From the IMG/VR virus record IMGVR_UViG_2718217787_000014: 49,036 bases of DNA. One strand, given 5' to 3'. Made by a program: the position numbers. Within the stretch, counting starts at the first letter, position 1. Each line of letters begins with the position of its first letter. Below are positions 27,001 to 30,000 of this stretch, one piece after another. The DNA is from a virus (taxonomy: Duplodnaviria > Heunggongvirae > Uroviricota > Caudoviricetes).

Positions 27001-30000
27001 CTTTAGTGGTCGCTTTTTGTGTCATATATAAGTCGTTTAAGTAAACCTGTCTGAACAGGTGCTCTGGTCGTGTTTGTCTTTGTTGGGTACAAATTGAGAA
27101 TATTTTTCATTAATTAATGAACCGCCCCGGGTTTCCTGGAGAGTGTTTTATCTGTGAACTCAGGCTGCCAGATCATCGTTTCCGATGGAAGCATAATAAG
27201 CTTTTTCTGCTTCTGCCGGAGGAGTATGGCCCAGCCTTCCCAGCAATCGTCGATTGTTATACCAGTCCACCCACGTTAGTGTGGCCAGTTCCACTTCTGC
27301 ACGGTTTTTCCAGCTCTTACGGTGTATTACCTCCGCTTTGTAAAGACCATTGATGCTCTCAGCCATCGCGTTGTCATACGAGTCGCCTGTACTCCCTGTT
27401 GATGCCAGTAATCCGGCTTCTTTTAGTCGCTCCGTATAGGCCAGTGACACATACTGAGAGCCTTTATCGCTGTGATGGATGGTGCCAGACGGACGACGGG
27501 CCCATTTACCCCGGAGAACACCGGCAAGTCCCATAACCGCCATGAGACGTGCCACTGTACATCTGGCCACCCTGATTCCTTCCCGTAACAACTGACGCCA
27601 GACTTTACGCACACCGTACACCTGATGATTTTCATCGTATACGCGCTGTATCTCTCTCTTCAGCCAGTCGTCGTGCTGCGCACGGGCACTGCGTTTATCC
27701 GGATGATGTCGCTGTTGCTGACAATGGTAATACGTTGACGGGGCAATATGCAGTTCGCTGCATACCGGTCCGACCCCGTACTGCTCACGCAGCTTATCCA
27801 GCAGTGGCATCATTTTTTCCAGAGGCGGTCGAACTCCGCCTTCGCAAAATAAGCGGAAGCCTGGCGAAGGATATCGTTACTGCGGCGCAGTTCACGATTT
27901 TCACGTTCCAGCTCTTTCAGACGCTGACGTTCAGCGCTGGTGAGCCCACCATCACCGCCCCCGGTATCCCGCTCATGCTGGCGAACCCAGACACGCAGAG
28001 TCTCCGGCGTACAGCCAATCTTTGGGGCAATGGAACAAATTGCCGCCCACTGTGAGTCATATTCATCCTGACTTTCCAGAACCATACGAATCGCCCGCTG
28101 ACGGACTTCGGGGGAAAAACGAGTATTTTTAGTCATCCTGTTTACCTCTTTCTCAGGGAGTTTAGTCTCCAGGATTTCCGGGGCGGTTCAATCCGCATAT
28201 TGATAATATATTGACAGGCATCATTGCTGTCTGTGAAAAATAAGTCTCTACAAACATATAAGGCCTTTTAGCCAGCGTCTTCTTTCAGGTCAGTCGCTGG
28301 CTCTTTTTTTATTATGCTGCCGGTGCATTTATCTCCAGCACCAGACTTTCTATCTCAACGCCATACGCTGCATTTTTTGTAACATCCGTCAGCGTCAGCG
28401 CATTCAGTCCCAGTGTCAGACTGTCTTTTATAACCTGGAATGCCGGGCCAGCCACTCCATTCAGTTTCGGAGTAACCGTGGCACTGCCGGCGGTGAACAC
28501 CAGCTCCAGCGTCTGCCAGTCGTTACCGTAATCGCCGAACTCCCCCAGCTTCGTGTTTCCGGCTTTCCTGTGATGCATCAGATTCACTCTGCCGTCAGTG
28601 GTCTGAGTGAAGTACGACATCAGGAACGGATTACCGGTACCCGTCATCGCCACACCATCAGGAACGGGAGCATCCGTATACAGATAAATCCCCAGCCCGA
28701 ACTGATTGTTGGTCAGTGCGCCTGACAGGCGGAACTTACAGTTCAGTCTGCCGCCCTGTGTCAGCAGGGTAATTGCGTCATCCACCGGATGCGTCAGGGA
28801 CCAGGTTTTATTGCTCTGCCTGGTGATCTTAAATACACCATCTGACAACTGAATTCCGCCATCCTTAATGCTCCAGCCCTGCGCAGCAGCCTCTCCGGCT
28901 GCCGGCAGCAGGGAGATTGTGCGAACGGACGTATCTGCAGACGGACCCGATGGCGTGTTGCCGCCGGGCGAGGGTTTGATTTCCGGTGCCTTACCACTGA
29001 TGAAGGCGGAGGTGCGCCCGGCTGCGTTCAGAATAGCGGTTGCCAGACGATCCGGAATAATGCTCCTGCGCGCCCATGAACTGAAATGTGTCGGGCGGTT
29101 TGATGATACCTGGTTTCCATTCGTTCTCGATGCCGCACCGTAATATCCTGATGCCGGAATATCCGGATCTTCTGCCGGCGCGTTAGTGGCGGTATTGACG
29201 CCGTTACCGTCTGTCATGAAGGGCACAAAATAAACGCCCTCACTCTCCCTGTTTTTATACCCGCCGTACACGGTGTCGTACTGGGTAGCGTATGTATTTT
29301 TCCAGTAATACGTCGTATCACCACAAATCCACGGCACATCTGCAGCACTGCCACCATGGCACTGCGCGTTAAACACGGAGAGGTCAGCACGAAACTGTGT
29401 CAGCATGGCTGTAAACAGCGCAGGTTGCTGTGCGTGGGTGGCGGCGCTCATGTCAAACTCTCCCTGCATCCAGCACACCGCCAGCAACACATTTTTCGGG
29501 TTCTTCTGTAATGCAGCTTTAGTGCGCGCAATCAGGTCCTGATATAACGGTTTACCCACACCCCAGCGTGCCGAATCCTGGCTGGCCCCCGTGTCCGCAC
29601 TGAATGTCCCCTCAGCGCCCTGGGTGAATGCAGAACCACCACGACAGCATGGTACCAGCAGGATCCCCGCGTTATTCGGGATATACGGAAGCAGTTTTTT
29701 GGCAATATGTAAGCCCTGGCCGACACAGCCGTACTGCCCTTTGCTCAGGTCTGCCTTCGGATGATTCAGCGTACTCATATCCTGCACATCATGCAGGCAG
29801 TGGTCGGCCGGAATGATGTCGTTATACGTACAACTCTCTCCACCCGGAGTTACCGTGCTGCGGCGCGCCAGCTGTTTAATGCGCGGATCCGGAGCATCGT
29901 AAGAATCCGGTAACGGAAGCCCTTCACCGTAGGCCATGCCGTTGGACTGTCCGGCAAGCACAACCACGTAGAACCAGTCCGGCTTAGATGAAGGGCCGAC

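Follow-up and report, generated by a model that had tools for sequence, protein, structure and literature searches.

A 237-bp in-frame deletion in the IS629 copy of Escherichia coli O157:H7 prophage Sp4, probably copied to other IS629 loci by gene conversion

Non-autonomous internal-deletion derivatives of transposons, such as those that resemble miniature inverted-repeat transposable elements and are moved by a helper, keep both ends and have no working transposase, and the Tn5 inhibitor protein and the KP elements of the Drosophila P element are cases in which a truncated product keeps the DNA-binding region without catalysis. The element considered here, IS629/IS1203, is a 1310-bp insertion sequence (IS) of the IS3 family, and partial copies of it have been recorded before, namely one with an 86-bp internal deletion in CB9615 and end-truncated ones in SpLE1, Sp13, and pO157 (Rump et al., 2011; PMC3271280). 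We have analyzed a stretch of 49,036 nucleotides (nt), the IMG/VR virus record IMGVR_UViG_2718217787_000014, referred to below as the window, which carries two copies of IS629, both on the − strand. Copy 1 (1..1268) is undeleted over the part of the element that the window contains, and copy 2 (27118..28190), an IS629 of the IS1203 type at site IS.1 of prophage Sp4, has lost 237 bp internally and is 1073 bp long. We propose, as the likely account, that a single deletion occurred in the IS629 resident in Sp4 and was later copied to other loci by gene conversion.

Outside the gap, copy 2 shares with IS629/IS1203 its sequence, the terminal repeats, orfA, the pseudoknot, the orfB frame, and the Sp4 site (IS.1/IS.2); it is without nt 687–923 of the element, which correspond to residues 104–182 of OrfB, and without a target duplication at Sp4. 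The identity with IS629/IS1203 is set by comparison with named genome copies. As in the non-autonomous derivatives, intact ends are combined with the loss of the element's own activity, the latter inferred from the loss of the catalytic aspartate D136, but copy 2 has not been amplified, is present essentially once per genome, and most of its extra copies lie at pre-existing full-length sites. Its likeness to the Tn5 inhibitor and to KP elements is one of architecture only. The other partial IS629 copies of O157 and O55 strains, catalogued as “complete or partial IS629” (PMC3271280), are likewise defective derivatives, whereas the deletion in copy 2 lies inside the element, preserves the reading frame, and spares both ends.

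An earlier note on this DNA, made from the sequence alone, had described copy 2 as an IS629 with an in-frame 237-bp deletion, and its coordinates, lengths, and frame proved correct. When copy 1 (1–1268) is aligned with 27160–28190, the first 345 nt and the last 686 nt are identical and together make up the exact length of copy 2, with no mismatches, a single 237-nt gap, and 0 nt of microhomology at the junction. The missing segment occupies 346..582 of copy 1 (− strand), and the junction, GGGCCCA|TTTACCCC on the + strand, lies at 27504..27505 and corresponds to IS629 nt 686|924. The window edge cuts copy 1 so that its last 42 nt (the right end) are missing, and the full-length reference is the element of strain EC4115 at the same locus as copy 2. 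This reference element is 1310 bp long, lies between the same flanks, and does not differ from copy 1 in the 1268 nt that the two have in common. Apart from the gap, copy 2 is 100% identical to the element annotated as “IS3-like element IS1203 family transposase” in EC4115 and to the “IS629 transposase” genes in Sakai.

Both ends of the element are retained, as the earlier note had also read them. At 27118 copy 2 starts with TGAACCGCC... and at 28190 it closes with ...GGCGGTTCA, its first letters (TGAACCGCCCCGG) and last letters (CCGGGGCGGTTCA) being the IS629 termini. Imperfect terminal inverted repeats of about 25 bp and of the 5'-TG...CA-3' type (TGAACCGCCCCGG...), the same as those of the full-length element, were read at 27118..27142 for the right terminal inverted repeat (IRR) and at 28166..28190 for the left one (IRL), both on the − strand, and the two match over 13 nt, differ at 3, and match again over 9 nt. 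The upstream open reading frame is also whole: orfA (27810..28136, − strand, taken from the list of open reading frames) encodes 108 residues, the same in both copies, with an HTH_Tnp_1 domain (Pfam PF01527, 47.3 bits). The region of programmed −1 frameshifting, made up of the ALIL pseudoknot and the overlap of orfA and orfB (GGAAAAAATGATG; 27739..27855, − strand), is intact, the pseudoknot (Rfam RF01497) scoring 121.5 bits in copy 2 and equally in copy 1. The two frames overlap at ATGA, preceded by an A-run, as is characteristic of a two-frame IS3 element, and the full-length copy at the Sp4 site carries the RefSeq mark “programmed frameshift.”

The deletion falls on the transposase. OrfB has 296 residues in copy 1 and 217 in copy 2 (27160..27813, − strand), and the 79 missing codons, covering residues 104–182 (KVRTT...WVADFTYV...LEQAL), include, as the earlier note had stated, the WVADFTYV block with D136, the first aspartate of the D136/D195/E231 triad. 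Copy 2 keeps an HTH_21 domain and the C-terminal half of the integrase core, with the HSD motif (D195) and AESINGLYK (E231, with K238 at +7), and in the full OrfB the spacings of 58 and 35 residues are those of an IS3-family DD(35)E enzyme. The Pfam rve domain matches copy 1 over model positions 2–101 with 96.9 bits and copy 2 only over positions 60–101 with 29.2 bits, below the cut-off of 32.6 bits, so that the complete DD(35)E core is present in copy 1 and absent from copy 2; HTH_21, rve_3, and the HTH_Tnp_1 of OrfA are unaffected by the deletion according to Pfam. Solved homologues that might anchor the catalytic residues were sought by sequence and none was close enough, and the assignment is based on the Pfam match together with the HSD and E-x7-K signature of the IS3 family. 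Judged by its position in the rve model, the deletion would remove the N-terminal half of the RNase-H-like fold. Because DDE enzymes universally need all three residues, an OrfAB fusion made from copy 2 would be unable to catalyze strand cleavage or transfer, and the earlier claim that copy 2 is catalytically dead is well supported by the loss of D136 and the rve score. OrfA and the frameshifted fusion can, as predicted from the intact signals, still be made from copy 2, the fusion being short of one of the catalytic aspartates and of roughly half the catalytic fold. Since the terminal repeats are untouched, copy 2 should in principle be recognizable by the transposase of other copies.

The direction of the change is given by the genomes of O157:H7 strains. 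The 2-kb region around copy 2 is part of prophage Sp4 and is matched at 100%, Sakai, EDL933, 86-24, and Xuzhou21 being among the matches, while EC4115, TW14359, SS17, the FRIK strains, and others match it in two pieces that span 237 bp more. Comparison with the IS629 variants of O157, which the earlier note had suggested as a check, thus shows that EC4115, TW14359, and other strains have the 1310-bp form where copy 2 lies. An IS is present at the Sp4 site in 257 complete genomes; the full-length form is found there in about 155 and the deleted form in about 100 complete genomes, and 38 have excision scars. The alternative that the difference in length is an insertion in copy 1, which the earlier note had named as the outcome that would overturn its claim, or else an assembly artefact, is refuted, and we attach practically no probability to it: the long form is the universal one and its rve domain is complete, and 101 complete genomes assembled independently of one another have the same junction, as do draft genomes and IMG/VR contigs. 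Hence, because the 1310-bp form has the complete domain, is common across thousands of genomes, and fills the same site, it is copy 2 that has suffered a deletion, which on these comparisons arose in place, in one O157:H7 sub-lineage.

The defect itself is a known and ordinary one, already annotated publicly as partial. The Sakai RefSeq record has two repeat regions marked “IS1203 Family: IS3 partial,” with ECs_1089/ECs_1090, at the position of copy 2. In Table S2 of Rump et al. (2011; PMC3271280), the Sp4 site is IS.1/IS.2, the Sakai coordinates of IS.1 (1182129–1183201) span 1073 bp, and those for TW14359 and EC4115 span 1310 bp; the table gives coordinates only and leaves the deletion and the other sites uncommented. 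A literature search by locus tag yielded nothing relevant. In the IS.1, IS.18, and IS.26 entries of the same Table S2, the old EDL933 IS.26 joins the upstream flank of Sp4 (ATATGCGGAT) to the downstream flank of Sp15 (CCCATTTCAT), and such hybrid flanks are what a recombination of two IS629 copies, or else a misassembly, would leave behind.

How far the deletion has travelled was assessed with a 56-nt junction probe in 5426 complete genomes, the E-value limit being set to exclude half-matches. The probe found 107 places in 101 genomes, with a median of one place per genome and a maximum of three. IS629-like places total more than 37,000, and full-length IS629 occupies about 20 places in each O157 genome. 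The junction was not found in GTDB species representatives or in metagenome contigs; it was found in two IMG/VR contigs, both in known contexts, and in draft genomes. The single match in PLSDB, NZ_CP124741.1, is a 286,775-bp EDL933 “plasmid” record typed as non-mobilizable and, judging from size and typing, is probably a mislabelled piece of chromosome. Another apparently plasmid-borne copy, on draft contig L009 near traT, was set aside as unreliable, because its left flank extends over no more than 36 nt, it has a homopolymer error of 1 nt, and the sequence to its right adjoins full-length IS629 in complete genomes.

Contexts other than Sp4 were found by exact look-up of the 217-residue protein, after which the flanks were read and each site was examined for occupancy by the full-length form. 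Four secondary sites emerged. In abgT (IS.11 of Rump et al.), with the target-site duplication AAA, the deleted form is present in FRIK1989, NE 1092-2, and one draft genome (two complete genomes in all), and the other matches listed, among 91 genomes with an IS there and including EDL933 and 86-24, carry the full-length form. In the DUF6645 (esterase-like) gene of the Stx2 prophage Sp5 (IS.3), with the duplication CTTT, TW14588 alone has the deleted form, and the other matches listed, among 64 genomes with an IS there, have the full-length one. Position 1060 of the 1073-bp element, which falls within the right terminal repeat, is an A in this TW14588 copy and a C in the Sp4 copy, and the full-length residents of the same site match it at 100%. 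In a prophage int/xis region near mlrA, with the duplication CTAC, the deleted form occurs in one draft genome and one IMG/VR contig, and complete genomes carry the full-length form with the same single-nucleotide polymorphism (SNP) in the IRR. The fourth site, between an eptA-like gene and ureD and with the duplication ATA, holds the deleted form, here with one substitution, in NJS001 (pig, China) and STEC799 (human, China), and no full-length form is found there among the 5426 genomes. Where the strains with secondary copies were checked, in TW14588 and NE 1092-2, the exact Sp4 deleted element is also present.

We propose that copy 2 would once have been a normal 1310-bp element resident in Sp4, that a single illegitimate deletion of 237 bp, in frame by chance, would have taken place in orfB in the sub-lineage of Sakai, EDL933, 86-24, Xuzhou21, and others, and that the deleted allele would subsequently have been transferred by intragenomic gene conversion, that is, by homologous recombination over the ~690 and ~390 bp of identical IS sequence that flank the junction. 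The donor would be the Sp4 copy and the recipient a resident full-length IS629, with no transposition of the defective element. The reason for concluding that the deletion was written into resident copies is that three of the secondary sites share with the full-length form its position and its duplication, the TW14588 copy in Sp5 also having the resident SNP, and the Sp4 copy in TW14588 and NE 1092-2 places the donor in the same cell, which points to intragenomic conversion. Specifically, it is not credible that a defective element should land at the exact nucleotide of a resident and reproduce the same duplication and the same SNP.

The earlier note had concluded that copy 2 is probably mobilizable in trans by other copies, and here the data lead elsewhere. 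According to this alternative, copy 2 is a non-autonomous element moved by full-length IS629 transposase, hence its presence at several loci, and the following is consistent with it: both terminal repeats are intact, full-length IS629 is present in the same genomes (as copy 1 is in the window), the deleted copies elsewhere are flanked by 3–4 bp duplications (AAA, CTAC, CTTT, and ATA), and at the eptA-like/ureD site only the deleted form is found, relatives being empty there or having insertions 1 nt and 90 nt away. However, all but one of the four secondary sites are well-known sites of full-length IS629, which hold the full-length element at the same position and with the same duplication in most related strains, dozens of genomes in all, and because full-length copies share these duplications they were made by the full-length element. 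In addition, the TW14588 copy keeps the resident SNP in the terminal repeat, the deleted form is essentially single-copy, with 107 places in 101 genomes against the ~20 full-length places of each O157 genome, and IS3-family transposases, that of IS911 for example, act preferentially in cis. Transposition was therefore rejected as a general account of the secondary copies, given that three of the four sites are occupied by the full-length form in other genomes, and we consider mobilization in trans unlikely; only at the eptA-like/ureD site may such movement have taken place.

That site has a history of its own. In relatives of NJS001 and STEC799 the spot is empty in 2009C-4687, in ML775 an IS629-like element of 95% identity lies 1 nt from it and has the duplication TAT, and several other genomes have an insertion 90 bp from the ATA site with the duplication TAC. 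About 600 bp upstream of ureD there are accordingly three separate IS629-type insertions within 90 bp, those with the duplications TAC, TAT, and ATA being 99.2%, 95.1%, and 99.9% identical to the O157 type, and from these insertions the region looks like a local insertion hotspot.

The identical junction at five or more loci might also suggest that the same 237 bp were lost independently and repeatedly at a breakpoint hotspot. The breakpoints themselves were searched for a cause, and they have neither microhomology at the junction nor any likeness to the IS termini; the sole feature is a weak imperfect repeat, GG(T/C)CCGT (6/7 match), which lies 2 nt inward of each breakpoint and thus at an equal offset from the two. 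This repeat could be taken to favor a recurrent mechanism, but a crossover within it would give a different product, and the junction accounts for 107 of more than 37,000 IS629-like places and was found neither in the GTDB representatives nor in the metagenome contigs. Moreover, the secondary-copy strains that were checked also hold the Sp4 copy, as a single origin followed by spread predicts. We therefore regard recurrent deletion as highly improbable and retain one deletion followed by gene conversion.

A different question is whether the shortened transposase does anything. It could be argued that the in-frame truncated OrfAB, with its regions for DNA binding and multimerization retained, acts as a dominant-negative regulator of IS629 and was kept, or spread, by damping transposition: the deletion preserves the reading frame, orfA and the frameshift signal are whole, as are HTH_Tnp_1 and HTH_21, and about 100 genomes have the allele in unchanged form, which has also been copied to further loci. 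By chance, though, one deletion in three would be in frame anyway, the element is 100% identical to active copies and hence too young for a signature of selection, and in ~155 related genomes the element at the Sp4 site is still full length, so that such a regulator would seem very doubtful. Equally doubtful is its extension by analogy, in which a dominant-negative allele spreading by gene conversion would progressively silence the IS629 copies of a genome, a bacterial analogue of KP-type repressors. Nothing in the data points to a function of the deletion.

Several observations weigh against a single deletion spread by gene conversion and should be set beside those that favor it. The IS629 copies are nearly identical and offer few markers of conversion tracts, the IRR SNP being the only one. 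The Sp4 donor was not confirmed in FRIK1989, and the third deleted copy of TW14588 and the second of NJS001 were not located; abgT was tried as the place of the former and rejected, since abgT is intact in TW14588. The copy in NJS001 and STEC799 stands with its own 3-bp duplication at a site that has no full-length counterpart in the collection, and trans transposition accounts for it no less well than would the conversion of a full-length insertion that the collection happens not to include. The loss of catalysis is likewise drawn from sequence. Finally, the Sp4 locus has no target-site duplication (TAA vs ATC), which means that the history of copy 2 is not that of a simple insertion.

The Sp4 site indeed bears traces of earlier events. 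The flanks of copy 2 read ...TTAATTAA|IS|ATCCGC..., with no 3–4 bp duplication in any genome that has the Sp4 site, and a remnant of a YlcI/YnfO (DUF3950) gene that lacks its N-terminus abuts the IS at 27037..27117 (− strand), annotated by the Prokaryotic Genome Annotation Pipeline in EC4115, TW14588, and NE 1092-2 and with its coordinates transferred by offset from L002. The missing duplication and the truncated pseudogene suggest an old IS-adjacent deletion or an IS–IS recombination. A true empty site was considered as a way to explain the absent duplication and had to be discarded, the IS-less alleles having proved to be two different scars. In the 38 O157:H7 genomes without an IS at the Sp4 site, these alleles are not pristine and are scars of at least two kinds: in strain 155 the sequence ...TTTCATT|CCGCAT... 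has lost 8 nt of flank, a 692-nt span of this strain being common to 29 of the 30 matches listed, including UK and Argentine strains, and in F6667 the sequence ...TTAATTAA|TATTGA... has lost 7 nt. Because each is without bases that the IS-bearing allele has, both derive from that allele by imprecise excision, and they fit the IEE- and transposase-dependent excision of IS629, which has been described as of the imprecise type (PMC9943667).

Copy 2 has as its left neighbor pchA, a gene for a PerC-family regulator (26641..26955, + strand), and as its right neighbor a gene for a SASA-family carbohydrate esterase of 616 residues (28312..30162, − strand). At the left end of the window, copy 1 is inserted in a short Sp4 gene for a tail-fiber C-terminal part (window 1–1466), the insertion point lying just after 1268; this gene is intact in Sakai and EDL933. 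The junction of copy 1 with the tail-fiber gene was not found in any complete RefSeq E. coli genome, where the best matches are 97.8% and fall in several pieces, so that the source strain of the window lies outside that collection, and the insertion looks strain-specific and recent. Next to it, at 1467–2786 (− strand), is a 439-residue tail-fiber protein with long collagen-like G-X-Y repeats and repeats rich in alanine, serine, and glutamate. Elsewhere in the prophage, Rfam matches at 30385–30575, 30655–30901, 35626–35800, and 44537–44588 correspond to the small RNA STnc100, three tRNA genes (argO, argN, and ileZ in Sakai), the sok antitoxin RNA next to hokD, and DicF.

For biology at large the deletion carries little weight, internally deleted IS copies being commonplace, and the only mildly new point is that it was probably copied into other IS629 copies by gene conversion. 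Within O157:H7 the deletion at IS.1 of Sp4 is a lineage marker, separating strains of the Sakai/EDL933 type from those with the full-length element or a scar, and typing by the presence or absence of IS629 alone would miss the 237 bp. It should be noted that the same variant at a new locus need not mean transposition. In our proposed account, the deletion in the resident copies at abgT, in Sp5, and in the int/xis region would be a clear instance from nature of conversion among IS copies at scattered loci.

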